From positions 4,380 to 68,379 of the forward strand of contig JAQWWZ010000072.1 of NCBI GenBank assembly GCA_029254745.1: DNA of 64,000 nt, in the 5' to 3' direction. A program made the translations under genes and the position numbers. Below are positions 17,474 through 34,017 of this stretch, piece after piece. The notes below the pieces were generated by a model. The model was not told the origin of the DNA. It saw only the letters and a list, made by a program, of their open reading frames with translations, and did not search any database. Each line of letters opens with the position of its first letter. Within the stretch, counting starts at the first letter, position 1. This DNA is from Opitutales bacterium. Its GTDB lineage: Bacteria > Verrucomicrobiota > Verrucomicrobiia > Opitutales > Seribacteraceae.

Positions 17474-18799
17474 ATGGCTGCTTCGACCTCTATTTTACCC
17501 CAAAAACTTCACGAATATCCTCAGCAAGATGTGATCGACGGATCTAGCGGAGAATCCGCATCCATTCTTGAGGATTGCCTCAACCATACTGGTGGGGTGT
17601 TACAACTTTTACATCGATATGCTGGCAGAACTTTCTGTTCGCCCGGGAAACGATTACGTCTCGATGAGGGTTCATACTATCCGGATTACATGGACGGTAC
17701 CGGTCTCGATGAAGTCTGGATGGGTTGCACCGTACCCATCGTCACAGGGGTGATTGATTCACGTACAGGTAAAGCTCCTTTTCGTGAAGGTGAATCCCAT
17801 GTGCTCACTCCCAATGGGCAGGTCATCCTGCTGCAGGATTTGATCCTCGCCAACCCTGCAGCGGTCATGGGTGACAAAATTACTGCTTTATCAAAATCAA
17901 TGTATGGCGATCCAACCTGGCCGATTGTGTCCAAGAAATTCGACAATTTGAATCCGATCCCCCATCACCTGCACTGGTCCAAGTGGGAAGTGTACGACAT
18001 CAATTCTTTTGACAACCCAGGCGTTAGCCCGTCGCATTATCATACCACGGCAATGGGACTTTACCCATTTGTGTCCAAGGACGATTTCCTTGCTTGCATG
18101 AAGCGTTTTGGGCAGGGTGAATATAACGGAGTTCGGCACCTTTCCCCGCATGTAATGATGCAACTTGATAACGGCTTTGTTATGCCAAATGGTGTACTGC
18201 ACTCACCGACAGACCTTTGCACTCACGAAGTGCATGTGACCATGGATGAGCACTTTTTAGCAGAGGATCTTACCCTTGATGGCCGTATCGGAGCTGCAGA
18301 TGCATTCTACGCATGCCGGGAAGAGGATTACCCAAAGGATAAACATGAAAATTGGGAGTACTTGGTTGAAAAGTTTGACTTCGAAGCCAATCAGGACCCG
18401 GAATTTGTTTTGAAGAATTCACGCCCAGCAATAACGGCGGAAGAATTTTCAGCTGACGGTGTAGATGCAAAATGGATTGTATACGGTAATTTTCTTGGTG
18501 ACCAAAAGGTCTCAATTCTCCGGCTTACTTTGGAGCCCGGGGCTAAGACATCTTTTTGCCCGGAGTGCCCCGCACTTTTTCACACTAACGGTGGAAGCGG
18601 CCGTATCGGAAAGCTTGAAGTACGATATCATCAGAATATGGTATTGGGAGAGCTCTACCCTGAGGTCGGATTTATTACCCAATCTGCACTTGCCAATGGT
18701 GGTGTCGACATTGAAAACACTGGGTCAGATCCTTTAGTTCTGACCTTTGACTTCCCGCAAAACGGGCATTCTAAAACACCCGGTGTTACTATGGCATAG
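17474..18799 (+). CDS. Divergent class I mannose-6-phosphate-isomerase-like cupin (substrate unknown)
   Basis: WPIVSKKFDNLNPIPHHLH (cf. PMI LxKxLD...SxQxH), WEVY, PNGVLHSP and HEVH cupin metal motifs. Confidence 0.6.
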   Translation: MAASTSILPQKLHEYPQQDVIDGSSGESASILEDCLNHTGGVLQLLHRYAGRTFCSPGKRLRLDEGSYYPDYMDGTGLDEVWMGCTVPIVTGVIDSRTGKAPFREGESHVLTPNGQVILLQDLILANPAAVMGDKITALSKSMYGDPTWPIVSKKFDNLNPIPHHLHWSKWEVYDINSFDNPGVSPSHYHTTAMGLYPFVSKDDFLACMKRFGQGEYNGVRHLSPHVMMQLDNGFVMPNGVLHSPTDLCTHEVHVTMDEHFLAEDLTLDGRIGAADAFYACREEDYPKDKHENWEYLVEKFDFEANQDPEFVLKNSRPAITAEEFSADGVDAKWIVYGNFLGDQKVSILRLTLEPGAKTSFCPECPALFHTNGGSGRIGKLEVRYHQNMVLGELYPEVGFITQSALANGGVDIENTGSDPLVLTFDFPQNGHSKTPGVTMA

Positions 18800-19107
18800 T
18801 AGTCCTCTGATACCGCCCGTCTTACCACTTCGGATCAACTGTTTCCGCTTCTCGGGAGAGGACTGTGGATACGGTAGAATTAAGTGGCATCAGTTATGAA
18901 ACCTGTAAAAGCCATGGTGCCGCTCAAGCTATTGGATGCCCAAGTTCTACTATGCTGAAGCTGGGGTGCCTGTATAGCTGTCTTTTATTTTAATCGATTA
19001 GAATACCCCGTATTGATCTGTAAACACCAACGAAAAGCGTGTTTTCCTTGCCATGCAAAGAAAAAAGCCCTTCCTATCTACTTTCTCCTTTTAATTATAA
19101 ACTTTTT

Positions 19108-20148
19108 ATGAGCGAATTATCTCAGCCTGTAGAACGCTCCGGAATCCTTTCCGGAGGTAATTGGATTATAGACCAAGTCAAAATTATTGATGTCTACCCT
19201 AAGCACGAACAGCTGGCCAATATTCTTGGCCAGTCACAGGGAACCGGTGGGTCCCCTTACAATGTACTCCTGGACCTTGCTAAGATGGGGGCATCTTTTC
19301 CTCTGGAAGGTGCGGGGCTTGTTGGGCAGGATGCATTGGGCAAATTTATTCTTGAGGATTGCAAAAAGAACAGCATCGATTCTCAGTTCATGTCTGTATC
19401 TCCGGGGGCCAGTACATCTTACACCGATGTAATGACTGAAAAAGATGGCGGAAGGCGTACCTTTTTTCACAATAGTGGCGCCAACTCTACCTGGGACGGT
19501 TCAGATATTGATTTTTCAAAAAGTGCCGCCAAGATTTTTCATCTTGGATACTTGCTTTTGCTCGATGCTCTTGATCAGGACCATCCAGAACATGGCACCA
19601 AGGGTGCCGCCTTGCTCGCCAAGGCCAGAGCTGCTGGATTCAGGACCAGCATTGATGTGGTTAGTGAAGACAGTGACCGCTTTGCCCGGATTATTGGTCC
19701 TGCCTTGAAGCAGGTAGATTATTGCATTTTAAATGAAGTGGAAGGCAGCAAGGTAACGGGTGTAAAAGTTCGTGAAGATGGAAAACTGCTCAAGGAAGGC
19801 ATTGAAGAAACTGCTCGTAAACTCTTTGAGCTTGGGGTGGGGGAGTTAGTGGCCATTCATTTCCCTGAAGGCTCCTATGCTCAGTCCAAAGATGGAGAAA
19901 AGGTATGGCATGGTTCCTTGTCCTTACCCAAAGGGTATATTCAAGGTGCAGCTGGAGCAGGAGATGCCTTTTGTTCAGGCGTACTTTTTGGTGTGCATGA
20001 AAATTGGTCTTTAGAGAAATCTCTTCTCACCGGGACTTGTGCCGCAACTGCTTGTATGTCAGATCCTACCTGCACCGATGGCTTGCGTTCTTTAGACCAT
20101 TGCCTGGCTTTAGCTGAAAAATTCGGGGTAGGGGAAGACGAAAGCTAA
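19108..20148 (+). CDS. PfkB/ribokinase-family carbohydrate kinase
   Basis: GGSPYNV, G-x-VGQDALG, C-terminal GAAGAGDAFCSG signature. ATG 19108 preferred over GTG 19039. Confidence 0.92.
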   Translation: MSELSQPVERSGILSGGNWIIDQVKIIDVYPKHEQLANILGQSQGTGGSPYNVLLDLAKMGASFPLEGAGLVGQDALGKFILEDCKKNSIDSQFMSVSPGASTSYTDVMTEKDGGRRTFFHNSGANSTWDGSDIDFSKSAAKIFHLGYLLLLDALDQDHPEHGTKGAALLAKARAAGFRTSIDVVSEDSDRFARIIGPALKQVDYCILNEVEGSKVTGVKVREDGKLLKEGIEETARKLFELGVGELVAIHFPEGSYAQSKDGEKVWHGSLSLPKGYIQGAAGAGDAFCSGVLFGVHENWSLEKSLLTGTCAATACMSDPTCTDGLRSLDHCLALAEKFGVGEDES

Positions 20149-20191
20149 TCCTTCCCATCTATTAAAACAATAATTTCTTATCCATATATTT

Positions 20192-21514
20192 ATGTCAGAT
20201 TCCTCACTTAATGATTTTAGCTCTCAAATTCGTGAGCAAGCACTCCAACATGCAGCAGAAGCCGGGGGGTTTCCTGAGCCTACAAATTTACTCAATCTTC
20301 ACGCCCACACCTTTTATTCATTTAACTACAAGGATTATTCCCCGAGTATGTTTGCAGTGGAAGCGAAAAAAGCAGGGCTTGGGTCTGCGGGTATTGTCGA
20401 CTTTGATGTACTCGATGGTTTGGATGAGTTTTGGAATGCTTCCCGCAAGCTTGACCTGAAAGCATGTATTGGATTGGAGTCCCGGGTGTTTGTTCCTGAA
20501 TTTGCAGACCGTGTGATTAATTCCCCGGGAGAGCCTGGCATTTGTTATCATATGGGCACCGGTTTCACGACCACTGAAATTCCCCACGATGCCCAAGACT
20601 TTCTGGACGGGATGAGGACCACATCCGAGCAACGAAATCGTTCTTTGCTCGATCGGGTAAATGCATTTTTAACCCCTTTGACTCTAGATTATGAGCGAGA
20701 TGTTTTGCCGCTTACGCCGAATGGTAACGCTACGGAGCGTCATCTTTGTCTCGCTTATGCCCGCAAGGCGGCGGCTCAGTTTCCCGAGGAATCCGCCCTG
20801 CGTGCGTTTTGGTCCGAGAAGTTGGGGGTGCCTGCGGGAGATCTTAAAGATGTACCGGATGGCCGTGGAATGACTGATTTAATCCGGGCTAGGACCATGA
20901 AAAAGGGAGGTGTCGGCTATGTGCAACCTGATTCCGGTTCTTTTCCCAACATGGCAGAAATGAATCAATTTGTTTTGAAGTGTGGGGCTTTACCAACTTT
21001 AACTTGGCTGGATGGTTGTTCAGATGGAGAGCAAGCCATTCGAGAATTGGTAGAGGTTAGTCAATCCAGTGGTGTGGTTGCGTTTAATATTATTCCTGAC
21101 CGTAATTACACTCCCGGGGCCCCTGATCAAAAACTAAAAAATTTACAGGAAGTAATCAGGCTAACCCAGGAACTTGAACTCCCATTAATTGGAGGAACAG
21201 AAATGAACAGCCCTGGGCACAAATTGGTGGACAGTTTTGAAACCGATGAGTTATCTGCGGTCCATCCAGTATTTCTCCGTGGGGCCCATATTTTACATGC
21301 TCATTCTACCTTGCAGAAATTTGGTAATATGGGATACCTGAGCGAGTGGGCGAGTTCACATTTTGGTCAGGTTAAAGAAAAAAATGACTTTTATGACCAG
21401 TTTGGAGAAATCTTTTCTCCACGGGCCGATACTAGATTACAAGATTCTTTGAGTGCGGAAAAGGCACCGGCAGAAGTGCTCGCTTTGGCCAAGGAAGCCA
21501 TGACTGCAGCGTAA
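20192..21514 (+). CDS. PHP-domain protein (putative sugar-phosphate phosphoesterase, atypical ligands)
   Basis: NLHAHTFYS, AGIVDFD, IGLESRV; C-terminal GGTEMN in place of the usual GSDxH. Confidence 0.7.
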   Translation: MSDSSLNDFSSQIREQALQHAAEAGGFPEPTNLLNLHAHTFYSFNYKDYSPSMFAVEAKKAGLGSAGIVDFDVLDGLDEFWNASRKLDLKACIGLESRVFVPEFADRVINSPGEPGICYHMGTGFTTTEIPHDAQDFLDGMRTTSEQRNRSLLDRVNAFLTPLTLDYERDVLPLTPNGNATERHLCLAYARKAAAQFPEESALRAFWSEKLGVPAGDLKDVPDGRGMTDLIRARTMKKGGVGYVQPDSGSFPNMAEMNQFVLKCGALPTLTWLDGCSDGEQAIRELVEVSQSSGVVAFNIIPDRNYTPGAPDQKLKNLQEVIRLTQELELPLIGGTEMNSPGHKLVDSFETDELSAVHPVFLRGAHILHAHSTLQKFGNMGYLSEWASSHFGQVKEKNDFYDQFGEIFSPRADTRLQDSLSAEKAPAEVLALAKEAMTAA

Positions 21515-21518
21515 TGCA

Positions 21519-22715
21519 GTGAGGAGAACCTTTGTCGGCTTTGGCTTTGGTGCGATCCAAGCCGGCTTGTTTCTTCCTGAAGTTCAAAAGTCTGGAAATT
21601 TTGACCGGATTGTCGTTTCTGAAATCGATCCGGTATTAGTAGATGCAATTCGGAATTCCGGAGGGAAATATTTCTGTAACATTGCAGCGGGCAAACAGGT
21701 AAAGGCAGTTCAAGTTACTGGAGTTGAGATTTACAACCCTTTGCAAGATGTTGACCGGTCTTCTCTAGTTGAAGCGGTTGCAGAGGCGAGCGAGCTTTGT
21801 ACCGCATTGCCCAGTTTCCATATGTACGATACCGGTCCGGCATCGGTTGCCCAATTACTTACTGAAGGTCTGAGGCGGAAAAAGGAGCAACCAGAACTAC
21901 CTGCGGCCGTAGTTTATTCCGCAGAAAATGATACCCGGGCTGCGAAAAGATTAGAGGAAGCCTGTTTGAACTATGCGAATGATGGCTTTGCACATCAGGT
22001 AGTATTTTCAGAGACAGTCATTGGTAAAATGTGCTCAATTGTAACCGATTTATCAAGGATCCAAAGAGAAAGTCTTTGCCCAGTAACTAAAGCATGTCCG
22101 CGGGCGATTCTAGTGGAAGCTTTTAATCAGGTTTTTGTGGATCAAGAAACCCCAACTGGCTTTATACGTGGATTGAATCAATTCTCACCAAAATCGGATT
22201 TATACCCTTTTGCTCTAGCTAAGTTTCTTGGTCAGAATGCAACCCACGCAACTTTAGGTTACTTCGCCGAATCAGAAGGTTTGGAGTACATGAGTGAATT
22301 ATCAGCCCATCCCAAAATAATTGCCCGTGGCCTGCATGCCTACACCGAGGAAGTAGGACAGGGGCTAATTTATCAGTTTGGTAAATTGGGGGAGCATCTC
22401 TTCACCAGGCATGGCTTTGCTGAACATGCAAAAATGGCTGTAGAAAGAATGCTCAATCCATTGCTCGCGGATCCGGTAACGAGGGTTACTCGAGATCCGG
22501 TTAGAAAGCTTGGCTGGGATGATCGCCTTGTAGGAGCAATCCGAATCACTCGTCAAGCGGGCGTTGAACCCGTTGTACTGCTTGAGGCAGCCCGGCTTGC
22601 CCTGAATAAGGCCTGTATGGAAAAACTGTGGACTGACCGTGCCCATGGGTTGAGCCAGATATGGTCGGGGGTGAAAACTTGCGAGTTCAAAGCTATACAA
22701 GATTTGCTTCTGTAG
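21519..22715 (+). CDS. Mannitol-1-phosphate-dehydrogenase-like (long-chain polyol dehydrogenase)
   Basis: FGFGAIQAG Rossmann motif, KFLGQNATHA catalytic K/N segment, NPLLADPVTRVTRDPVRKLGWDDRL matches the MtlD C-terminus. GTG start. Confidence 0.75.
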   Translation: MRRTFVGFGFGAIQAGLFLPEVQKSGNFDRIVVSEIDPVLVDAIRNSGGKYFCNIAAGKQVKAVQVTGVEIYNPLQDVDRSSLVEAVAEASELCTALPSFHMYDTGPASVAQLLTEGLRRKKEQPELPAAVVYSAENDTRAAKRLEEACLNYANDGFAHQVVFSETVIGKMCSIVTDLSRIQRESLCPVTKACPRAILVEAFNQVFVDQETPTGFIRGLNQFSPKSDLYPFALAKFLGQNATHATLGYFAESEGLEYMSELSAHPKIIARGLHAYTEEVGQGLIYQFGKLGEHLFTRHGFAEHAKMAVERMLNPLLADPVTRVTRDPVRKLGWDDRLVGAIRITRQAGVEPVVLLEAARLALNKACMEKLWTDRAHGLSQIWSGVKTCEFKAIQDLLL

Positions 22716-22768
22716 CCTCCCTTTGTTTACTTATCTAATTTTCGAAACAAGGGTTGCATTTCCTTCAA

Positions 22769-22799
22769 AAACGATCAAAATCCATCTTAAACGATCAAA
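22769..22799 (+). promoter_or_regulatory. Direct repeats AAACGATCAAA x2, candidate DeoR operator
   Basis: Copies at 22769-22779 and 22789-22799, exactly 20 bp apart, between a TTGCAT -35-like hexamer (22754) and the probable ATG (22799). Confidence 0.5.
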
Positions 22800-23578
22800 T
22801 GATCCGTGAAGCACACCCAGCCCTTGCTCCTCAACGGAGAGATAAAATCCGCGCCATGATTCGTGACGGAGGGGTTGCCCGTGTCGAAGATTTACGGAAA
22901 AATCTAAAAGTTTCTGTGGCTACCATCCGGAGAGATCTTGAGATTCTAGAAGAAGAAGGAAAAGTACGCCGTGTTCATGGAGGAGCTGTCTCCACTGAAA
23001 GCCGATTGGAGGAAACAGTGTTTGAAAATAAAACCCATATTTCCGCCGCCGCCAAGCAAAGAATTGCGGAAGAAGCATACAAACTTATAGAACCTGAAGA
23101 AGCCATTTATTTGAATGGAGGGAGCACCACGCTATTTCTTGCCCGTTTATTACGTGAACGTTCCGATCTGACTTTAGTGACAAACTCTTTGCAGGCCGCC
23201 ATTGAACTGGCAGATTCAGGTCCCCGTGTCATTCTTACAGGAGGGGAGTTGCGCAGGATCAGTCAGACGATGGTGGGTCCACTTACATCAGCCGTGCTTG
23301 AACAGGTACGGGTAGACAAAGCTTTTATGGGAACGATGGGGATGTGCCTAACTCATGGCCTTACAACTACCGACCCCAATGAAGCCTATTCCAATGATGT
23401 GGTTGCCCGGCAAGCGGGTAAAGTTATTTTACTTGCTGATTCCCAAAAGGCGCAAAAGGTATGTTTTGCCCGTTTTGCTGACTGGAATGAAATCGATCTT
23501 TTATTATCGGACAAAAAACTCTCACCAGATTTCGCAAAGTCTTTGCGAAAGAGGGGGGTTAAAGTCCAACTAACCTGA
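22799..23578 (+). CDS. DeoR/GlpR-family sugar-responsive transcriptional regulator
   Basis: HTH VSVATIRRDLEILE...RRVHGGA, sensor domain LNGGSTT, TNSL, LTGG, DKAFMG. ATG 22799 preferred over TTG 22754. Confidence 0.95.
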   Translation: MIREAHPALAPQRRDKIRAMIRDGGVARVEDLRKNLKVSVATIRRDLEILEEEGKVRRVHGGAVSTESRLEETVFENKTHISAAAKQRIAEEAYKLIEPEEAIYLNGGSTTLFLARLLRERSDLTLVTNSLQAAIELADSGPRVILTGGELRRISQTMVGPLTSAVLEQVRVDKAFMGTMGMCLTHGLTTTDPNEAYSNDVVARQAGKVILLADSQKAQKVCFARFADWNEIDLLLSDKKLSPDFAKSLRKRGVKVQLT

Positions 23579-23608
23579 ATCAATCTCTAAAGAGGAGAAT
23601 AAATACTT

Positions 23609-24922
23609 ATGGCCACACCTATCATCATGCCTCGCCAAGGACAATCGGTTGAGAGCTGCATTCTTACCGAATGGAAAGTTAATGTTGGAGACGACGTCGC
23701 TGAAGGCGATGTACTCGCCGTTATCGAAACCGATAAGGCAAGCTTTGATCTGGAATCCACCGCAGCGGGTAAAATACTCGCTCTTTTTTGGGAAGCAGAC
23801 GACGATGTTCCCGTTCTCGCCAATGTCGCAGTAGTCGGAACCGATGGCGAAAATGTTGATGAGTTTCGTCCTGCAGGCCAGGCGGAAACTCCTGCCGCAG
23901 CCCCAAAATCTGCCGAGCCTGTTACTTCTGCTCCTGTCCAGGCTGCTCCGCAAGTTGCTGTCGTTGCCCAACCTGCTTCTACTTCTTTAGTCGCCAGTGC
24001 TGGTGTGAGCCCACGGGCGAGAAGGCTTGGAATTAAGTACGGACTGGATGCAGAAACCTTGAATGGTAGTGGTCCGGGTGGTCGAGTTATTGAGAGAGAT
24101 GTGCAGGCTGCCCTGGATGGAAAGCCCCGTTTGTCAGCCACCGCTCGTTCTCGTTCATTGTCCGAAGACCTTGAGTCCCCGGTTCGCGGAAGCGGACTAG
24201 CAGGAATGGTTCTCTCCAAAGACCTGAAGGTGCCCGGCTCTGTCGATGGTGCGGAGATGTCATCGGTTAAGGGAATCCGCAAGGTGATTGCCGAGCGTAT
24301 GATCCAATCCCTACAAACCACTGCCCAACTCACTTTACACGCATCTTTTGAGCTTACCCAAGCCCAGGCCTACCGAAAGCAGAGGCTGGAAGATGGGCAG
24401 TCCAAGGTTTCGTTAAATGATGTTATTGCCCATGGGATTGTGCAGTCCCTCAAGGCGCATCCAGAAATGAATGCCCATTTCCTCGGCAACCGTATTGCAA
24501 CCTTTGAAAAAGTTCACCTCGGTGTTGCGGTTGATACACCTCGTGGCTTGCTGGTGCCAGTGATAAAAAATGCGTCGGACTTATCAATTGAGCAAATTTC
24601 GGCTGAAGTCAAAAGCCTGGCTGGTGCCTGCCGGGAAGGAACTATTTCACCCGACAACTTATCTGGTGGATCCTTTACGCTTACAAATCTTGGAATGCTT
24701 GGCGTTGAAAACTTTACACCTGTGCTTAATGCCCCAGAAGTTGGCATCCTTGGGGTCGGTGGCATCGTTCTCAAACCTAAACGAACCGAGAGTGGAGAGG
24801 TTGTGTATGTCGATACTTTACCTCTTAGTTTGACCATTGATCACCAAGGTGTAGACGGTGCTCCCGCCGCCCGCTTTCTCCAAACCCTTGTCGAAAAGCT
24901 AGAAAATAATCCTGGAGCTTAA
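23609..24922 (+). CDS. Dihydrolipoamide acyltransferase (E2) of a 2-oxoacid/acetoin dehydrogenase-type complex
   Basis: Lipoyl motif IETDKA, Ala/Pro linker, E3-binding GSGPGGRV plus a second copy GSGLAGMV, FTLTNLG, catalytic DHQGVDG. Confidence 0.95.
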   Translation: MATPIIMPRQGQSVESCILTEWKVNVGDDVAEGDVLAVIETDKASFDLESTAAGKILALFWEADDDVPVLANVAVVGTDGENVDEFRPAGQAETPAAAPKSAEPVTSAPVQAAPQVAVVAQPASTSLVASAGVSPRARRLGIKYGLDAETLNGSGPGGRVIERDVQAALDGKPRLSATARSRSLSEDLESPVRGSGLAGMVLSKDLKVPGSVDGAEMSSVKGIRKVIAERMIQSLQTTAQLTLHASFELTQAQAYRKQRLEDGQSKVSLNDVIAHGIVQSLKAHPEMNAHFLGNRIATFEKVHLGVAVDTPRGLLVPVIKNASDLSIEQISAEVKSLAGACREGTISPDNLSGGSFTLTNLGMLGVENFTPVLNAPEVGILGVGGIVLKPKRTESGEVVYVDTLPLSLTIDHQGVDGAPAARFLQTLVEKLENNPGA

Positions 24923-24962
24923 ATTTAATTTAACCCTATAAGATAGAAATAAACTTACTGAA

Positions 24963-26306
24963 ATGAAATACGATTTTGCTGTTATTGGAGCCGGTCCTGC
25001 CGGATATGTCGCCGCTAAAAAAGCCGCCGGGGCTGGTCTTAAGACCTTACTTGTTGAAAAGAAAAAACTTGGAGGTGTATGCTTGAACGAAGGCTGTGTT
25101 CCATCCAAGACACTTTTACAAGCTGCTAAAACCTATCATCATGCCAAGCATGGTTCGGTCTTTGGGGTTTCCGTTGAAGGCCTGACCTTTGATTTTTCTA
25201 AAGCCCACTCTCATAAGAATGGAGTGATGAACAAAATGCGTGACGGGATTGCGGGCCTGATGAAAAAATACAAAATTGATGTAATCGACGGAGCAGCCGT
25301 GCTTAAACCAAACCGTAAAATTGAAGTGAACGGGGAAGAGCATGAAGCAGACAATATTTTAATTTGTACTGGTTCCTCTCCTGCGGTCCCTCCCATTCCT
25401 GGAATTGATCAGGAGCATGTGGTAGATTCTACCGGGATTTTAAATCGCGAAACCCTACCCAACCGCTTGATCGTTGTAGGTGGTGGAGTGATCGGTTGTG
25501 AGTTTGCCTGCATGTACGCATCCGTGGATGTACCGGTTACAGTGTTGGAGGCAATGCCCGAAATATGTCCAAATTTGGATGTAGAAGTAGCAGCTACTTT
25601 ACGAAAAGAATTGGCCAAAAAAGGTGTGGACTTTCAACTTGGTTGTAAGGTTGAGGAAATTGGGTCTTCTCAGGTTAAGTATCATGATGGTACAGAATCC
25701 AAAGAAATTGAAGGTGATTTGGTTCTTGTGGCAACTGGTCGCCGACCCAATGTTACCAATATTGGCCTTGAAGAACTTGGCTTAGAATTTTCTCCACGTG
25801 GAATCAAAGTAGATGAACGCGGTGCCACTAATCTTCCTGGAGTTTGGGCTGCAGGTGACGTGACGGGTCAAGCTTGGCTTGCTCATGCTGCAAGCAGAAT
25901 GGGAGAGGTTATTGTGAATAATATAACGGGACGAAGTGATCAGATGCGTTATGACGCCATGCCTGCCGTTGTATACACCAGCCCCGAAGTTGCGGTTGTT
26001 GGTTTGACCAAGGAAGAAGCCGAAGAACGTGGTATCAAAACACGATCTGGTAGAATTCCTATGGCAATCAACGCTCGCTACATTGCAGAGAATCCAGACG
26101 AGGCTGGCCTCTGTAAAGTGGTACTTGAGGATGGTACAAACCGTTTACTCGGAGTGCACATGGTAGGGGGAGCTTGTTCAGAAATGATATTCGGTGCCAC
26201 GGCCATGATTGAAGCTGAACTGCGAGAAGAGGAGATTGAAGAAATTGTATTTCCTCACCCAACCACCTCGGAAATTGTGAAGGATGTCTTTATGGCCGTT
26301 CGCTAA
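24963..26306 (+). CDS. lpdA: Dihydrolipoamide dehydrogenase (E3)
   Basis: GAGPAG, redox disulfide CLNEGCVP, GGGVIG, GDVTG..LAH, HPTTSE. Confidence 0.95.
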   Translation: MKYDFAVIGAGPAGYVAAKKAAGAGLKTLLVEKKKLGGVCLNEGCVPSKTLLQAAKTYHHAKHGSVFGVSVEGLTFDFSKAHSHKNGVMNKMRDGIAGLMKKYKIDVIDGAAVLKPNRKIEVNGEEHEADNILICTGSSPAVPPIPGIDQEHVVDSTGILNRETLPNRLIVVGGGVIGCEFACMYASVDVPVTVLEAMPEICPNLDVEVAATLRKELAKKGVDFQLGCKVEEIGSSQVKYHDGTESKEIEGDLVLVATGRRPNVTNIGLEELGLEFSPRGIKVDERGATNLPGVWAAGDVTGQAWLAHAASRMGEVIVNNITGRSDQMRYDAMPAVVYTSPEVAVVGLTKEEAEERGIKTRSGRIPMAINARYIAENPDEAGLCKVVLEDGTNRLLGVHMVGGACSEMIFGATAMIEAELREEEIEEIVFPHPTTSEIVKDVFMAVR

Positions 26307-26353
26307 GCGATTTACTCTTAACCTAATACACAACCATTTAATTTTTATTTGTC

Positions 26354-28807
26354 ATGCCGAAGTCACAAATTATTGAACCAGCCGTAGAACGTAAAGCCGG
26401 AACTATTCCTTTCAAGGAAGTCTCCCTCAACCAATACAAAGGTGATCTCAAAAATGAGGTTGAAACCTATGGAGCCGAAGCCCTTATCGGAATCTATGAA
26501 GATATGCTGCTCATCCGTGAGTTCGAAAGCATGCTCCAAAGTATAAAGACCCAAGGGTCCTATGAAGGTGTTGAGTATGATCATAAGGGTCCTGCCCACC
26601 TCTCCATCGGGCAGGAAGCTTCGGCAGTGGGGCAGGCCTTTCTCCTTGGCGTGGACGATCACATCCTTGGGTCCCACCGCTCCCATGGGGAAATTCTTGC
26701 TAAGGGAATGTCTTCCATACGAAAGCTTGACGATGATACATTGATGGAGATCATGAAAAACTTTTTGGGTGGAGATTGTTTTGGCGTGGTTGAAAAGGAA
26801 GGGGCTGATAATGTAAAGGCACTTGCCCGTAACTTCCTGCTCTATGGTGCCCTGGCCGAGGTCTTTGGAAGAGCCAATGGTTTCAATCGTGGTCTAGGTG
26901 GTTCTATGCATGCCTTTTTTACTCCCTTTGGTATCCTTCCAAATAATGCAATTGTCGGTGGTTCCGCTGATATTGCCATGGGTGCCTCTCTCTTTAAAAA
27001 GTGCAACCGCAAGCCCGGTATTGTAATCTCCAATGTGGGAGATGCATCTATGGGTTGTGGACCGACTTGGGAAGCGATGAACTTTGCCTCTATGCGCCAG
27101 TTCCATGAATTATGGGAAGATTCAATGAAGGGTGGATTGCCCATCATTTTCAATTTTATGAATAATTTTTATGGAATGGGTGGACAGACTGCTGGTGAGA
27201 CCATGGCTTTTGATTTCTTAGCCCGGGTAGGAGCTGGGGTTAATCCTGACTCTATGCATGCTGAGCGGGTGGATGGATACAATCCTCTGGCAGTGGCTGA
27301 TGCCATTCGCCGTAAGAAAACATTACTCGAACAGGGAGATGGTCCGGTACTCTTGGAAACCATTACTTATCGTTACTCCGGACACTCTCCATCGGATGCA
27401 TCCTCTTACCGCTTAAAAGAAGAGATTGAAGCCTGGCAGGCGATTGATCCTTTGGAAGCATATGCAAAAGAAATTATTGAGGGTGGGTTGATAAACAAGG
27501 AGCAACTTGAGGAATGTAAGGCATCAACCACGAAGGCAATGACACAGGCTTGCAGGCTTGCATCCTGTCTGGAAACCTCCCCCCGTTTACCTTCCGAAAA
27601 GATTGCCGGCTTGATGTTTTCTAAGCGCAAAGTCGAAAACTATGATCCTTCCCGTAAGCCTGAACTTATTTTGCCAGCTGCTGAAAACCCCCGTGTTTTA
27701 GCATTGGCCAAAAAGTCTCGAGCTGGGATTATTGACGGTAAGCCCGTTTCCAAGAACAAGGTTTACCAATACCGCGATGCCATTTTTGAGGCTGTTTTCC
27801 ACCGTTTCCAGAACGATTCAACTTTGGTTGCTTACGGAGAGGAAAATCGGGACTGGGGAGGTGCTTTTGCCTGTTACCGGGGATTAACTGAGTCTTTGCC
27901 CTATCACCGATTGTTCAATTCTCCCATTTCTGAAGCTGCGATTGTAGGTTCAGCTGTTGGATATGCCCTTCAGGGAGGACGTGCTTTGGTTGAGTTAATG
28001 TATTGTGATTTTATGGGTCGTGCAGGAGATGAGATCTTTAATCAGTTGGCTAAGTGGCAGAGTATGTCTGCCTGTGTGCTGGAAATGCCCGTGGTTTTAC
28101 GGGTATCTGTGGGGTCAAAATACGGCGCTCAACACTCTCAGGACTGGTGTGCGATCTGTAACCATATTCCTGGCTTACAGGTTGTCTTTCCTTCTACTCC
28201 TTACGATGCCAAGGGTATGCTTAATACTGCACTAGCTGGCAGTGACCCTGTGGTTTTCTTTGAAAGCCAACGTCTCTATGATATTGGGGAGCTTTTTGAA
28301 AAGGAAGTGCCCGAAGGATATTATGAAATTCCTTTTGGACTGCCAGCTCAACGCAGAGTGGGAAATGATGTGACCATTATCACTGTGGGCGCAACCATGT
28401 ACCGGGCTTTGGAAGCTGCAGATATTCTTGAACAAAAATATGGAGTGACATCAGATGTTTTTGATTGCCGTTCGATCACGCCATTGGATTACGAACCACT
28501 TGTTGAATCGGTTCGTAAAACCGGAAAGGTATTGCTTTCTTCAGATGCTTGTGAGCGCGGATCCGTTATGCAAGATATAGCTTCAAAATTAGGCCAATTG
28601 GCCTTTGACGAATTAGATGCACCCCCTGTAGTTGTTGGATCTCGGAACTGGATAACCCCCTGTGCTGAGGTGGAAGAGGATTTCTTTCCTCAACCGTCCT
28701 GGATGATTGATGCGATTCATCAAAACATCTTACCTTTGCCTGGTCATGTAATGACAACCAACCCGACGACTGGGGAAATGATTAAGCGTTACCGAGAAGG
28801 GGTATAA
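26354..28807 (+). CDS. Fused alpha/beta E1 ThDP-dependent dehydrogenase component
   Basis: [20 protein letters not shown], ThDP motif GDA...[11 protein letters not shown]; beta part [21 protein letters not shown]. Confidence 0.93.
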
Positions 28808-28929
28808 TTGCCTGAGGAAATCGTAAAGCAGGGCCTAAGAAGCGTTTATATTTTTCAACTAATATTGATTTTAAATGTCAGGATTTCACTTCTGATCGAG
28901 TGTGACTTCCGTAATTACTCAAAAAACTT

Positions 28930-29679
28930 ATGGATTATTTAGAAAAATATTCTGATAAAGTCGATACCTTCATCGGGGTATGTCATCACTTGTCTGCCCA
29001 CCAGTATGTGACTGGGCATGGTGGGAATCTTGCCTGGAAATTGGAGGACGATGTCATTTTAATCACTCCAACCAAGCACAACAAAGGGGATGTGAATCGT
29101 GAAAATGTTGTCTTTATCAACCTTGCTGGGGAAACGATCGAAGGCACGGTGAAGCCTACGGGTGAAACACCGATGTATGTGAATTTTTTCAGGGAACGCC
29201 CCGATGTGCAAGCGGTGCTTCATTGTCACCCGCCCCATCTCAATGCCTTTGCCATTTCGGACTCTAAAAACTACCATATGTGTCCTCTCTTTCCTGAGAC
29301 TATTACCGAAGTGGGACCGGTTCCGGTTGTTCCATATGGGGAACCATTAACTCAAAAGCTTGCAGATAATTTTTTACCATTTTTGCAAAAGTATAATGGT
29401 TTTCTCATGGAAAATCATGGCTATGTGTTCATCACGCCGTGGGATATAAAATGGGCTCAGATGTGTACCGACTTGCTCGAGATGACCGCGTTGCACATCA
29501 TTCACGCCCGTAGCTTGGGTGGAAATATTAAAGAAATTGGATATGAAGACCTTCAAAACATGGGGAATATTATGAAAACTCGTGGATTACCCTTACCGGG
29601 TGCCCCTGGTGAATGGTCAAGTCTGGAGGATATGTATTTCCCGGACGGTCCTCCAAAAAGTTTAACCAACTTATCTTAA
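28930..29679 (+). CDS. Class II aldolase/adducin family protein (FucA/AraD-like)
   Basis: GGNL, ITPT, ETPM, Zn motif HCH, LMENHG. Confidence 0.9.
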   Translation: MDYLEKYSDKVDTFIGVCHHLSAHQYVTGHGGNLAWKLEDDVILITPTKHNKGDVNRENVVFINLAGETIEGTVKPTGETPMYVNFFRERPDVQAVLHCHPPHLNAFAISDSKNYHMCPLFPETITEVGPVPVVPYGEPLTQKLADNFLPFLQKYNGFLMENHGYVFITPWDIKWAQMCTDLLEMTALHIIHARSLGGNIKEIGYEDLQNMGNIMKTRGLPLPGAPGEWSSLEDMYFPDGPPKSLTNLS

Positions 29680-29682
29680 TTT

Positions 29683-31497
29683 ATGCCAACTACCAAAATT
29701 GACAGAGCTCAGGAGCTAGCAAAAAAAGCTCGTTCATCACATCACGGGGTTTACCTTACCGGCCCGAACGAAGTAAAAGTACTGGAAGACGACCTACCAG
29801 TTGCTTCTTTGAACGGAGAAAATTATCTTCTGGCTAGTTTTGGTAATTGCAGGTGTGCGTCAGATGCTAAAGCAATTCGTCAATTTGATACCCATGCAAG
29901 GGTACCATCTGGAGTGGACCGTATTGCGTTGGGTCATGAAACCCTACAGCTTGTATTGGAAGCGCCTACAGATTCAAATGTTGTGCCTGGGGATGTGGTT
30001 GTCGTTACCCCAGGGCACGCTACAAAACCAATTGATCCGCTGACCTTTAAGCCTAGCAAGGATGGGGTTCTTTCATCGCTTGGCTATTCTTACCGGTACC
30101 TTGGCGGACTTCGGCAATTCAGTATTGTTCCGGGTACTGCACCTGCTTTTGTTAAGGCTCAGGGCTTTGGGAACTTTTTCAACCCTGTCTCGCCAAGCGA
30201 GAAAACAAGCCTTGTTACGCTGGCTCACGCTGAACCTTTTGCCTGCAATTATGGCACCAATAAACACATCTTCACGATCGATCAAAATAGAGAATTTTTA
30301 TACGGCGTGCCCTCTCGTTCCATTGTAGCTTACCTTTCCGGGACGGCTCGGATGGCAATGATCAACCTGACGATTGTAGCGAGTGTACCAGATGAAGACT
30401 TACCTCCCGTCGTTTACATAACAGGTTCTCAGTCCAAACTGGATGAAATGGAAGAATATGCTCTCATCAAGGATTTACGAAAGCGGGGAACTCGAGTTGT
30501 TTTAATAGATCGTAATGATCCCAGCATCATTACAAAACTTACAGAGTTCGGTAAACCTCATGTGGTTTGGACGAATTATGCATCAGTTGCCACCTATGAG
30601 CAGGCAAGTGCAATTATGGCCAAAGGAGGAAATTTAAATAGTTATGCGGGTGCTGTTGATCCCGAACTTACCTTTGAAATGCCTATCTGCGAAGCTCCTC
30701 ATTTTTCTACTTTTGAGGAAGAGGCTATAAGCCAAATAGGAGAGATGCATCACAATCTTTCTCCAAATGACCCCAAACGATATCGTGGCTTGGCCAAGGA
30801 TCCCAAAATTGCCTTGATTGGTTTCGAAGAAGGGTCCGATCGGGAAGCTGCCTACCTAAACCAATTTCCCAAAGGAACCTCGGTGTTGTTTTCCTTGATG
30901 GGTAATGCCCGCGATGGGTTTGAACCCTGCTCACTTAAGGACGGTGGTTTTACAGATGTCTTTATTGCTGGTCGTGGAAATTATGCCGCTTCTGCTTATG
31001 CTGATATTGAAACACAACTCGCTCGTTCAGCTGCGGTTAATTTTATTGATGGGGATGTTGAGCTCAAGATTCGCTCTAAGAACGCTCACTATGTAACGCG
31101 TCATCAAATCTGTGGCGTTAATGTGCCTTGGCATATGACTAACACCTCAGAACCTCATGCCGATGACATGCTTGTTCAAGCGAGTAACCCTGTATCTTTT
31201 GATTGGATGGTAAAAGGAGTTTGTGGCTTAAAAAATGTGCCAAACATGATGGACGAAGTTGAATCGGCTCAGCCATTTGGTTCTTTTTTTGCTTTTGCCG
31301 AACTTGTAGATTTGCCATATGTCGAAACTACGGCCTCTGCATTTCGAGCTGCGGCGGAAAGTTCCCCTAACCCCGTTAAAGAATCCTTACTTGCCGGGGC
31401 GGACGCCTTAGATATTACAGGTGATGTATGGAGTAGAAAAGTCGAGGAAGCAATTTATGAAGGGTATGAATTTCCATATCCTCTTAATCTGACATAG
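29683..31497 (+). CDS. Extended SorE-like (L-sorbose-1-phosphate reductase family) Zn medium-chain dehydrogenase
   Basis: C58, GHE (H85/E86), GYSYRYLGG, EPFAC, later AHY..HQICG, TSEPHADDM and VWSRKVE align with my recollection of SorE; about 200 aa longer than SorE. Confidence 0.65.
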   Translation: MPTTKIDRAQELAKKARSSHHGVYLTGPNEVKVLEDDLPVASLNGENYLLASFGNCRCASDAKAIRQFDTHARVPSGVDRIALGHETLQLVLEAPTDSNVVPGDVVVVTPGHATKPIDPLTFKPSKDGVLSSLGYSYRYLGGLRQFSIVPGTAPAFVKAQGFGNFFNPVSPSEKTSLVTLAHAEPFACNYGTNKHIFTIDQNREFLYGVPSRSIVAYLSGTARMAMINLTIVASVPDEDLPPVVYITGSQSKLDEMEEYALIKDLRKRGTRVVLIDRNDPSIITKLTEFGKPHVVWTNYASVATYEQASAIMAKGGNLNSYAGAVDPELTFEMPICEAPHFSTFEEEAISQIGEMHHNLSPNDPKRYRGLAKDPKIALIGFEEGSDREAAYLNQFPKGTSVLFSLMGNARDGFEPCSLKDGGFTDVFIAGRGNYAASAYADIETQLARSAAVNFIDGDVELKIRSKNAHYVTRHQICGVNVPWHMTNTSEPHADDMLVQASNPVSFDWMVKGVCGLKNVPNMMDEVESAQPFGSFFAFAELVDLPYVETTASAFRAAAESSPNPVKESLLAGADALDITGDVWSRKVEEAIYEGYEFPYPLNLT

Positions 31498-31545
31498 AAG
31501 AATTTAGTATCTAAATTCTAAATACACTAACAAAAAATTGAAGAC

Positions 31546-32367
31546 ATGAGCTGGACAAATTTAGAAGGAAAAGTAGTTATTATAACCGGCGGAGCGGCTG
31601 GAATTGGGTTGGCTGTTGCAAAAGGCTTTATCGAAGTGGGTGCAAAAGTAATGATTGCAGATTTTGCAGAAGAAATCGGGCAGAAAGCAGCCACAGAAGC
31701 AACGAAGTTTGGAATTGGAGAGGCTGCTTTTGCGAGGTGTGATGTTTCAAGTAAGGCGGATGTAGATTCTGTGATTGCTCAAACTGTTGAGAAATGGGGT
31801 GCTGTTGATGTTTTGGTTAACAATGCGGGTATAAATATCCCTCGTTTGCTAGTGGACCCAGCAGGTAAGGAAGAATTAACAGAAGATGTCTGGGACAAAG
31901 TTTTTGCGGTGAATGTGAAAGGACAGTTTTTATTTGCCCAAGCAGCGGCCCGTCAAATGCTTGCAGGGGGAAATGGGGGAGTCCTTATTAATATGTCATC
32001 TGAGTCAGGCATGGAGGGAAGTGAAGGACAAAGTGTTTATGCGGCTACCAAAGCTGCAAATCATAATTTAACCAGATCGTGGGCCAAAGAACTTGGGAAG
32101 TCAGGTGTCCGGGTAATCGGAGTTGCTCCTGGAATTATGGAAACGACTGGAATGCGCAGTTTAGCCTATGAAGAATCCTTAGCTTATACCCGCGGAGTAA
32201 GTGTGGATGAGTTACGAAGCAAGTACGGATCGGTTTCTTCCATTCCTTTGGCTCGCAGTGGAAAACTTACTGAAGTATCAGATTTAGTGGTTTACCTAGC
32301 TTCCGAGCGTGCATCCTATTTGCATGGTACAACGGTTAATATTTCAGGGGGCAAATCTCGGGGATAA
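31546..32367 (+). CDS. sorD: Sorbitol-6-phosphate 2-dehydrogenase-like SDR (SorD type)
   Basis: TGGAAGIG, NNAGINIPRLLVD, SSESGMEGSEGQSVYAATKAA, WAKELGK, ISGGKSRG closely match SorD motifs. Confidence 0.8.
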   Translation: MSWTNLEGKVVIITGGAAGIGLAVAKGFIEVGAKVMIADFAEEIGQKAATEATKFGIGEAAFARCDVSSKADVDSVIAQTVEKWGAVDVLVNNAGINIPRLLVDPAGKEELTEDVWDKVFAVNVKGQFLFAQAAARQMLAGGNGGVLINMSSESGMEGSEGQSVYAATKAANHNLTRSWAKELGKSGVRVIGVAPGIMETTGMRSLAYEESLAYTRGVSVDELRSKYGSVSSIPLARSGKLTEVSDLVVYLASERASYLHGTTVNISGGKSRG

Positions 32368-32384
32368 TCTTACCAGTTTGCTTC

Positions 32385-32843
32385 CTACTCTTTCCAGGTA
32401 GTCACTCCTTTTACCAAAAGTAAATTGGCGTAGACTCGCACATCTCCTGTCATCACGACTGCGAAGGCATTAGACGCCCGATCATAAAAATCAAACTTAT
32501 CCATTTTTTCAATAGATGGAGTTTCCGGATAGTGTTCATGGATGGTCGTGGTGTAGTCATCACAAACTTCATGGTATTTGCTTAGAAGAGTTTTTGATTG
32601 TCGATCTTCGAGTATCGGTTCCATCATCACTACCGGATGTTTGACGGCATGATCCAGAACAAACAAAGGAAGAATGGCATGAACCAAATCTTTTATTAAA
32701 AGCCCGTCCGCGCGAATAATATTTTGGTTTTTGCTTTCTCCGGGAAAGTGAGCATCACCAAACACAATTTCATCGTGGTGACCCATCCGGTAAAGAGTTT
32801 CTAATAGTCTTGGACTAATCAGGGGGGAAATACCTTTAAGCAT
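32385..32843 (-). CDS. fucU: RbsD/FucU-family sugar mutarotase
   Basis: MLKGISPLISP.LL..L..MGHHDEIVFGDAHFP, FYDRA..AFAVV.TGD.R.YANLLL.KGV. Confidence 0.9.
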   Translation of the reverse strand: MLKGISPLISPRLLETLYRMGHHDEIVFGDAHFPGESKNQNIIRADGLLIKDLVHAILPLFVLDHAVKHPVVMMEPILEDRQSKTLLSKYHEVCDDYTTTIHEHYPETPSIEKMDKFDFYDRASNAFAVVMTGDVRVYANLLLVKGVTTWKE

Positions 32844-33022: not shown

Positions 33023-34017
33023 TTACCCTAGCTCTACTTTTAGAATTTGTCCAAAAATTTTAGATAAATTTTCATAAGCCACAAAGAGCTTAAAATGAGA
33101 GTTTGCTGCTTTCGTAAGTCCGTCCAAATTATATCCACCTTCAAGAAAGGAAATGATTCTTTCATCGCAGTACTCTTCAACAAGATCCCGGATGATGAAA
33201 CTGAGGCCGGCAAAGTCTTGATCGTCCAATGCAAATTGGCCATGGGGATCTCCCATCCTAGAATCAAAACCTGCCGAAATCATAAGTAATTCAGGTTTGT
33301 ATTTGTTTATTTTCTTTTTTAGTTCGATACCAAAGCCATCTTCAACGATCTCTTTTCTTGCACTCCCTGCAGGTAGAGGGAAATTGAGAGTGGTACCTAA
33401 GCCTTTTCCCTTACCGGTTTGGTCTTTAGTTCCAGTACCTGGATGCCAAGGATGTTGATGAACGCTCATAAAAAACAGATTCATCCTCATAAAAATATCT
33501 TAGGTTCCATTTCCGTGGTGAACATTCCAGTCCACAATTAAAACTTTACCAACACTATATTTTTTGAGCATAACGAGCAGCAATTGCAATATGGCTGAAA
33601 AGACAAAACCCCATTCCTTTATTAGGTGTAGCATGATGCCCTGGAGGGCGGACTATACAAAATACACGTTTTTAATTTACCTGAAAATAGATGGTTGACT
33701 GCAAGAGTGCCTGCACCAGTCGCTGTTCGAGCAACCAACCATGATTCTCGGCTTACATGGGTGTCACCAATTTATAAACTAAGCTTGCCGGATGATATAT
33801 CTTTCTTGGTAAGAGAAAGATAGAGAAGGTCGTGAACAAGGCTGAGGGTACTCTCAGTGCATGCTGTAGGAAGGAGAATGGACACATCTTTTAAAAGGTC
33901 TGCCTGCAGTAAACTTTGGTAGACACGGGTCGCTCGGATCGACTGTTCTGGATGTCCTATCCCCGTGGTATGATTTTCGAAATATTTATCGTAAACCACT
34001 CCAGATGTGGTAACCAC
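33023..34017 (-). pseudogene. Histone deacetylase/AcuC-family pseudogene
   Basis: HPE, GDT, RPPGHHA, GMGFC, DWNVHHGNGT, ISAGFD and LEGGY are spread over several frames. In-frame TAA at 33772-33774 and 33500-33502; homopolymer frameshifts near 33669-33673, 33560-33565 and 33470-33495. Confidence 0.9.

Follow-up and report, generated by a model that had tools for sequence, protein, structure and literature searches.

A cluster of twelve genes at positions 17474-32843 of the 64,000-nucleotide stretch of DNA analysed here (the window; contig JAQWWZ010000072.1 of the Opitutales bacterium assembly GCA_029254745.1) was examined as a candidate sugar catabolic system that carries its own lipoyl dehydrogenase complex. 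The list of open reading frames (ORFs) contains eleven co-oriented plus-strand ORFs at 17474-32367 and a convergent ORF at 32385-32843, in agreement with the eleven co-oriented genes and convergent FucU described for this region in a first-pass annotation. From the PfkB gene onward the intergenic gaps are 3-122 bp, and 240 bp separate the first ORF (441 amino acids, aa) from PfkB. Genomes, loci, contigs and families of the sample are denoted by G, L, C and f numbers, respectively; G000 is the genome of the window, and f1 is its own family. Families were assigned from Pfam and NCBIfam profile scores relative to the model cut-offs, with the following results:

17474-18799, plus strand: 441-aa protein with zero matches in Pfam, NCBIfam and PDB
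19039-20148, plus strand: PfkB-family sugar kinase, 369 aa (PF00294, 88.8 bits)
20192-21514, plus strand: divergent PHP-fold protein, 440 aa (PF02811, a weak match of 31.9 bits, N-terminus only)
21519-22715, plus strand: mannitol-dehydrogenase-family oxidoreductase, long-chain polyol-phosphate dehydrogenase-like, 398 aa (PF08125 and PF01232, 47 and 29 bits)
22754-23578, plus strand: DeoR-family regulator (PF00455 and PF08220)
23609-24922, plus strand: E2 dihydrolipoyl acyltransferase, 437 aa (lipoyl, E3-binding and catalytic domains)
24963-26306, plus strand: E3 dihydrolipoyl dehydrogenase, 447 aa (TIGR01350, 497.6 bits against a cut-off of 408.8)
26354-28807, plus strand: fused E1 alpha-beta enzyme dependent on thiamine diphosphate (ThDP), 817 aa (E1_dh, Transket_pyr and Transketolase_C)
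28930-29679, plus strand: class II aldolase-fold protein, 249 aa (PF00596, 105 bits)
29683-31497, plus strand: long zinc-dependent medium-chain dehydrogenase/reductase (MDR), SorE-like, 604 aa (no Pfam or NCBIfam match; assigned by profile and AlphaFold2 model)
31546-32367, plus strand: short-chain dehydrogenase/reductase (SDR), SorD/SrlD-like, 273 aa (NF004817, 355.4 bits against a cut-off of 304)
32385-32843, minus strand: L-fucose mutarotase FucU (NF011949, 141.8 bits against a cut-off of 141)

Pfam and NCBIfam thus bear out the earlier labels of PfkB, DeoR, E2, E3, fused E1, class II aldolase and SorD-like SDR. The PHP label finds its Pfam model, though at a weak score; the MtlD-like label holds at the level of the mannitol-dehydrogenase family and goes no further, as every MtlD equivalog cut-off is missed by far (at most 89.6 bits against cut-offs above 269); and the SorE-like label stands as a predicted zinc-MDR fold with an extra domain, in a protein that no Pfam or NCBIfam model matches. 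The phosphomannose isomerase-like cupin proposed for the 441-aa protein found no confirmation. The reported lack of a transporter or phosphotransferase system (PTS) is correct for the twelve cluster genes, which are the part of the window that was checked for transporters. A scan for sigma-70 promoters and terminators returned fewer sites than shuffled controls and is therefore uninformative on operon structure, and a search upstream of PfkB for a DeoR operator in the form of a conserved k-mer found a single conserved block, which lies inside the predicted N-terminus of PfkB and has no more extra copies than expected by chance.

Within f1, whose GC content fits the MB11C04 group of Verrucomicrobiota (PMC8857213), the order PfkB-PHP-MtlD-like-DeoR-E2-E3-E1-[aldolase]-MDR-SDR with a convergent FucU is kept across three genera, whose proteins share 51-90% identity (lowest values 51-65%). 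Synteny also takes in the housekeeping genes on either side (PPK2, carA, PEPCK, cox), and a conserved order within f1 is therefore weak evidence by itself. More telling are the loci of other families. Of 401 genomes sampled from the phylum, about 74 have a fused-E1 orthologue (at least 53% identity). In f28, f43, f60, f47, f48, f23 and f30 the fused E1 is accompanied, in a variety of gene orders, by PHP, an MDR and either an SDR or an aldolase-SDR fusion, and some of these loci also have an FGGY kinase or an MtlD-like gene. DeoR-E2-E3-E1 and PHP-MDR-SDR are located at separate loci in f35 and in GCA_016745075.1, each with a DeoR gene of its own. The PHP family is present in 81 of 92 genomes with a fused E1 compared with 56 of 309 without it, a comparison in which the ratio counts and a p-value does not, because related genomes are not independent.

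The same association extends beyond the phylum. A scan of one genome per species, at an E1 identity of at least 60%, returned more than 596 loci, and the fused E1 is present in at least 10 phyla, in both metagenome-assembled genomes and isolates from varied sources; these phyla include Verrucomicrobiota, Lentisphaerae, Planctomycetota, Bacillota, Spirochaetota, Bacteroidota, Actinomycetota, Armatimonadota, Fibrobacterota and Atribacterota, among others. Neighbours were counted at the 56 loci that span 12 kb or more, which come from at least 10 phyla: E2 was present at 51, E3 at 44, MDR and PHP at 37 each, and DeoR at 29; an aldolase-SDR fusion resembling RhaEW was found at 34 and a separate SDR at seven (either one at 41); and FGGY kinase, class II aldolase, FucI and FucU were found at 11, nine, three and three, respectively. 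The co-occurrence that the first-pass annotation had proposed to look for is therefore found, in many gene orders. Judged by homology and gene content, DeoR, E2, E3, fused E1, PHP, zinc-MDR and SDR form a conserved unit that recurs in eight or more families of the phylum and outside it, in Clostridia, Bacteroidota, Spirochaetota, Planctomycetota and further phyla, with the fused E1 as its signature gene and PHP as a core member. PfkB, the MtlD-like gene and FucU, which had been listed as parts of the system, are lineage-specific additions, and the 441-aa gene is unrelated.

Several variants of these proteins were observed in passing. A second family of fused E1 alpha-beta proteins (~770 aa, ~40% identical) is present in 18 of the 401 genomes (e.g., G254:C68:11025-13244 and G007:C2:318576-320789); the PHP family is present in all 18, and this second family could represent a remoter form of the system. 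At G004:C42:11281-13740 the E1 match lies inside a 1921-aa open frame, and at G062:C3:30880-32130 the PHP match lies inside a frame of ~1590 aa; these may be larger fusions or high-GC artefacts. In another family, a 430-aa protein that has two class II aldolase domains in tandem (L082 4214-5506, minus strand) is encoded divergently from a DeoR-E2-E3-E1-PHP-SDR-MDR operon.

In the lipoyl complex itself the catalytic motifs are intact: the E2 has the lipoyl-lysine context ETDKAS and the catalytic motif DHQGVDG, the E3 has the redox motif CLNEGC and two GxGxxG motifs, and the fused E1 has the ThDP motif GDA-x38-NN at residue 229. On pyruvate dehydrogenase (PDH) models, its E1alpha, E1beta and E2 score 193.6, 221.9 and 257 bits against cut-offs of 393.85, 321 and 445, or roughly half to two-thirds of the cut-offs, and the E2 falls below all equivalog cut-offs. 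The 2.45-Mb genome G000 contains three E2 genes. Contig C54 encodes an E1alpha, E1beta and E2 that score 425, 439 and 421 bits on the PDH models, passing or nearly passing their cut-offs, and contig C70 carries canonical SucA, SucB and Lpd. The complex in the window is a third one, additional to canonical PDH and 2-oxoglutarate dehydrogenase (OGDH). The possibility that it is the only PDH of the genome, which the first-pass annotation had named as grounds for abandoning its proposal, does not apply and was rejected, given the canonical PDH on C54. In a ranking against the PDB, the E2 matched PDH E2 at up to 206 bits and the E2 of branched-chain 2-oxoacid dehydrogenase (BCKDH) at ~104 bits, and the E1alpha half was closest to human PDH E1alpha; the E2 thus appears to be of the acetyltransferase type, and E2 and E1alpha appear PDH-like rather than BCKDH-like. 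A BCKDH identity was rejected on the same ranking. Elsewhere in the sample, G163, G317, G367 and G203 encode a NifJ-type pyruvate:ferredoxin oxidoreductase (PFOR; NifJ >1700 bits), and in the first three of these the module complex is the only one that contains an E2.

For the 604-aa MDR, a phmmer search against the PDB returned nothing usable, and a profile built from 33 homologues matched the GroES-like domain of sorbitol and secondary-alcohol dehydrogenases. The zinc ligands are kept (C58, H85, E86 and E184 are invariant). An alignment-based AlphaFold2 model (pLDDT 89.3, pTM 0.86) matched zinc-MDRs in Foldseek at a TM-score of ~0.57 over ~320 of the 604 residues, the matches being secondary-alcohol, sorbitol, L-idonate 5- and butanediol dehydrogenases. 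The model thus predicts a zinc-MDR fold to which a further, Rossmann-like domain is added. In the first nucleotide motif, a degenerate SGTARMA stands in place of the GVGPMG of 423-aa relatives; a second glycine-rich motif, GRGNYA, lies at residue 430 within the extra domain; and a 561-aa MDR of another family has the same architecture. Identity to the 423-aa SorE-like form is ~27%. The long form is a tiny family: 1.84 billion representatives include ~5 full-length clusters of it, and within the order it is present in 29 of the 33 f1 genomes and in none of 367 others, with one more genome carrying it in the phylum sample.

Among the remaining enzymes, PfkB has its best NCBIfam match in the IolC N-domain (76.7 bits against a cut-off of 300), with weak PDB matches to ribokinase and ketohexokinase, and occupies the same position in all f1 loci examined; it is probably a lineage-specific entry kinase that replaces the FGGY rhamnulokinase-like kinase of other lineages. 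The PHP protein has an invariant HxH motif (H37, H39) and further invariant His/Asp/Glu residues, and among solved structures it is nearest to 3e0f, a ‘putative metal-dependent phosphoesterase’ (70-residue match); it is probably a metal-dependent phosphoesterase. The MtlD-like gene is also found beside the module at L103, L104, L078, L133, L152, L167 and L169, making it a recurrent accessory. DeoR, which presumably senses a sugar phosphate, is encoded immediately before E2 in nearly all loci of the Planctomycetes-Verrucomicrobia-Chlamydiae (PVC) group, including those where the complex stands alone. The SDR shares 26-29% identity with the corresponding domain of RhaEW-like fusions in other lineages, and FucU, whose position is conserved in f1, is the sole RbsD/FucU gene of the genome.

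The class II aldolase has its best NCBIfam match in 3-oxo-tetronate-4-phosphate decarboxylase (99.5 bits against a cut-off of 250) and scores 45.9-80.8 bits on FucA models with cut-offs of 250-400, and no FucA or RhaD cut-off is reached; HCH (98-100) and H163 fit a zinc triad, and the protein is 75% identical to the G722 copy. The gene is absent from most f1 clusters, and G629 (96% complete) has zero class II aldolases genome-wide, so that in the family of the window the aldolase is an optional, dispensable member. In G554, a 258-bp aldolase remnant lies between E1 and MDR (L067 5829-6086, one genus). The distribution in the family points to repeated loss.

The recurring partners of the module (RhaA, FucI, rhamnulokinase-like kinases, RhaEW-like fusions and FucU) point to a 6-deoxyhexose substrate (fucose, rhamnose), in place of the algal polyol or branched sugar suggested in the first-pass annotation, which the partners do not bear out. 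At L093, for example, the module is accompanied by a rhamnulokinase-like FGGY kinase (357 bits) and a bifunctional rhamnulose-1-phosphate aldolase/dehydrogenase-like fusion (319 bits), and in G163 and G154 the PHP gene adjoins RhaA (~630 bits). Based on this sequence context, the module very likely represents DeoR-controlled catabolism of 6-deoxyhexose-type sugars (L-fucose, L-rhamnose or a close analogue), and as such is conserved. The genome of the window also encodes a fucK (FGGY)-fucI pair (G000:C9:57182-60472; L077 5183-8473), with no aldolase, regulator or transporter beside it, and the genome's only FucU lies at least 30 contigs away from this pair, at the cluster studied here. Shell genes of a microcompartment were found in none of the five family genomes checked.

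No pathway that uses these genes together, and no biochemical characterisation of the module, was found in the literature, as the first-pass annotation had anticipated; the single trace is a ‘predicted dehydrogenase in rhamnose utilization’ (PMC8579813), and the complex is not mentioned by Rodionova (2013). The trace leads to Caldicellulosiruptor. In C. bescii, Athe_0696-0706 encode RhaD1, a SrlD-like SDR, a SorE-like MDR, LipB, LipA, E2, E3, E1, RhaR2 and RhaA, and the DeoR-family RhaR2 is predicted to have the operon Athe_0702-0706 (E2, E3, E1, RhaR2 and RhaA) as its regulon; AcoC, AcoL and AcoB are listed as the characterised proteins nearest to the E components (supplement), and the authors suggested that these components deal with lactaldehyde (PMC8579813). 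The corresponding cluster of C. saccharolyticus, Csac_0865-0876, is upregulated on rhamnose (PMC4187192), and the cluster is present in the rhamnose-growing species tested and missing in two non-growers (PMC4187192; PMC8579813). In gene content it resembles the cluster in the window in its class II aldolase (RhaD1), SrlD-like SDR, SorE-like MDR, E2, E3, single E1 gene and DeoR-family regulator; it differs in having RhaA and LipA/LipB inside the cluster and rhamnulokinase elsewhere, whereas the window has PfkB, the MtlD-like gene, FucU, the PHP gene and the 604-aa MDR.

Two further systems supply the chemistry on which a mechanism can be modelled, and both are familiar. In the acetoin system, the 2,3-butanediol dehydrogenases turn a vicinal diol into a methyl ketol by oxidation, and cleavage of the ketol, with no decarboxylation, then gives acetyl-CoA and an aldehyde. 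SorE is an L-sorbose-1-phosphate reductase of the zinc-MDR type, and SorD/SrlD is a glucitol-6-phosphate dehydrogenase of the SDR type. The window shares with the acetoin dehydrogenase system (AcoA/AcoB/AcoC/AcoL) a ThDP-dependent E1, lipoyl E2 and E3 encoded together, as well as secondary-alcohol dehydrogenases of both MDR and SDR types, and the ketol cleavage proposed below would be the same chemistry. It departs from that system in its fused E1 alpha/beta and its order E2-E3-E1; in a DeoR regulator in place of the sigma-54 activator AcoR; in the lack of acetoin or butanediol genes in its context; and in partners (kinase, PHP, aldolase, mutarotase) that are sugar-phosphate enzymes. With the sorbose system it has in common adjacent MDR and SDR genes, the SDR passing NF004817 and the MDR keeping its zinc ligands, and possibly the logic of shifting a carbonyl between the ends of a phosphorylated hexose chain. 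Here the differences are that the twelve window genes include PfkB and no PTS, that the pair is coupled to a lipoyl complex, and that the MDR has 604 aa rather than ~410-430 aa, an extra domain and a degenerate first nucleotide motif.

By analogy with these two systems, the following sequence of reactions is proposed. The sugar would be anomerised by FucU and converted to a phosphorylated deoxy-ketose or deoxy-polyol, by PfkB and the MtlD-like enzyme here and by RhaA or FucI with an FGGY kinase elsewhere. The SorE-like MDR and the SorD/SrlD-like SDR, acting as in the L-sorbose pathway, would then shift the carbonyl next to the terminal methyl group, so that a 6-deoxy-ketose-1-phosphate would yield a 1-deoxy-ketose phosphate (CH3-CO-CHOH-R), an acetoin-like methyl ketol. 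The ThDP-dependent fused E1 would cleave this ketol in the manner of acetoin dehydrogenase, the acetyl group passing by way of lipoyl-E2 to CoA and E3 regenerating the lipoamide with NAD+. A C4 aldose phosphate would be left, to be processed further by the PHP phosphoesterase, together with the class II aldolase-fold protein where present. Most f1 clusters are without an aldolase and G629 is without any class II aldolase, so that E1 would there be the only enzyme of the cluster that cleaves a C-C bond. The carbonyl shift by MDR and SDR followed by E1 cleavage to acetyl-CoA and a C4 sugar phosphate is offered tentatively, as a possibility that falls somewhat short of an even chance. The wider proposal, in which 6-deoxyhexoses are broken down independently of an aldolase by a ThDP/lipoamide complex and the MB11C04-type version replaces the isomerase with a kinase/polyol-dehydrogenase entry, is possible but slightly more doubtful still.

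This reading can be set against the known fucose and rhamnose pathways (FucUIKA, RhaMABD, and the RhaEW type of Bacillus and Chloroflexus with a DeoR-type RhaR). The likenesses are a DeoR-type regulator, FucU in the cluster, fucK-fucI elsewhere in the genome and, in other lineages, class II aldolase and RhaEW-like fusions as partners. The differences are that the aldolase of the window is optional and below the FucA and RhaD cut-offs, that a ThDP/lipoamide complex is present, and that lactaldehyde dehydrogenase, lactaldehyde reductase and a microcompartment were looked for and not found. The variant in the MB11C04-type genomes, new here, has PfkB in place of FGGY, an MtlD-like gene, the 604-aa MDR, separate aldolase and SDR, an attached FucU and no linked isomerase.

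Several observations weigh against the proposed mechanism or the substrate that it assumes. Among five f1 genomes, four lack FucI, four lack RhaA and three lack both; with FucI and/or RhaA mostly missing, entry of fucose or rhamnose in f1 is putative, and, as three of the five have neither isomerase, PfkB and the MtlD-like gene probably supply a lineage-specific entry of the sugar, which is a guess. The MDR, SDR and PHP proteins of f1 are only 22-29% identical to their counterparts in f28, f43 and f47, so that functional orthology across families is assumed, and substrate specificity is not readable from the module sequences. What PHP and the MtlD-like gene do, and what becomes of the C4 product, is likewise guesswork; by stereochemical reasoning this product would be D-threose-4-phosphate or L-erythrose-4-phosphate, and no enzyme that uses either was identified. 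The RhaEW-like aldolase/SDR fusions, at more than half of the 56 loci, suggest that the system includes cleavage by an aldolase and oxidation of lactaldehyde. Finally, C. saccharolyticus converts rhamnose to 1,2-propanediol, acetate, H2 and CO2 at 1:1:1:1 (PMC4187192), proportions that fit cleavage by an aldolase and not the passage of the methyl end to acetyl-CoA.

The last two points lead to the main alternative, which we consider unlikely: a class II aldolase would split the deoxy-ketose-1-phosphate into dihydroxyacetone phosphate and L-lactaldehyde, a RhaW-like SDR and the MDR would convert the latter to lactate or 1,2-propanediol, and the complex would act on the C3 unit (lactaldehyde or pyruvate derived from it) to give an acyl-CoA. 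Besides the fusions, this route draws support from the separate class II aldolases at nine of the 56 loci, from the HxH...H triad kept by the aldolase of the window, from the formation of 1,2-propanediol from rhamnose at 1:1 by C. saccharolyticus though no known lactaldehyde reductase is annotated, and from the lactaldehyde role proposed by Rodionov et al. for the Caldicellulosiruptor complex (PMC8579813). It is difficult to reconcile with the loss of the aldolase from most f1 clusters and its complete absence from the G629 genome, and it leaves PHP and the SorE-like enzyme without a role. Pyruvate oxidation is, moreover, already covered by canonical PDH or PFOR in every genome checked, and we know of no E1 that uses lactaldehyde.

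It is less probable again that the complex is a sugar-regulated second 2-oxoacid dehydrogenase, acting on pyruvate or, for example, a 2-keto-3-deoxy sugar acid, which is merely co-regulated with the sugar genes and cleaves no C-C bond of the sugar directly. The resemblance of the E2 and of the E1alpha half to PDH components would favour it, as would the many PVC genomes in which DeoR-E2-E3-E1 stands alone and the three genomes (G163, G317 and G367) in which this is the sole complex with an E2. The domain families and the acetyltransferase-like E2 are indeed those of PDH with a heterotetrameric E1; however, the E1 of the window is fused, none of the components of the complex comes close to its PDH equivalog cut-off, which the separate PDH of the genome passes or nearly passes, genomes with a stand-alone complex (e.g., G128, G098 and G722) carry PHP, MDR and SDR elsewhere, in keeping with the frequency of PHP among fused-E1 genomes, and PFOR is present where the complex is the sole one with an E2. 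That a BCKDH, as JGI names the complex, and an unrelated sugar operon are chance neighbours in a syntenic region, as might be read from the name that E1 bears in the source annotation (‘2-oxoisovalerate dehydrogenase E1 component’) and from the syntenic housekeeping flanks in f1, is very improbable and largely refuted by the rearranged recurrence of the module across eight or more families of the phylum and beyond it in other phyla, by the genome-level co-occurrence of PHP with the fused E1, by an E2 that is much closer to the PDH/Aco type than to BCKDH E2, and by the absence of branched-chain amino-acid genes nearby.

If cleavage of a methyl ketol by the fused E1 were correct, it would be a new type of reaction for the 2-oxoacid/acetoin dehydrogenase family, toxic lactaldehyde would be avoided, and a microcompartment would not be needed. 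Sulfated algal polysaccharides rich in fucose and rhamnose make up a large pool of marine carbon that is degraded slowly. Verrucomicrobiota of this type are reported to be specialist consumers of these polysaccharides, and few canonical fucose and rhamnose genes were noted in the MB11C04 family (PMC8857213), whose use of fucose and rhamnose the alternative route, if true, would explain. Since the fused E1 occurs in at least 10 phyla, a new sugar-cleaving reaction that depends on lipoamide would close a gap in numerous metabolic reconstructions. The question is directly testable because cultured carriers exist: Thermophagus xiamenensis and Treponema primitia have the fused E1, and C. bescii has the matching cluster.

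Two further observations concern the first gene of the cluster and the region downstream of FucU. The 441-aa protein, for which phmmer against the PDB also gave nothing usable, shares 80-87% identity with hypothetical proteins from Planctomycetota (Blastopirellula, Bremerella and Schlesneria), where it stands alone in unrelated contexts. As it is also missing from most related clusters, it was excluded, contrary to the first-pass annotation, which had counted it as a member; by these comparisons it is an unrelated, highly conserved orphan. It was also rejected as a candidate for the isomerase of the pathway on account of its stand-alone Planctomycetota relatives. Conservation of this strength across phyla is unusual for an unnamed family. 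Downstream of FucU, at 33023-34000 of the window on the minus strand, a histone-deacetylase/AcuC-like gene is broken over at least three reading frames; the family is matched, over its C-terminal half, by a single 155-aa ORF, the orthologue at the Seribacter locus L003 is intact (324 aa), and the broken copy is either a pseudogene or an assembly error.

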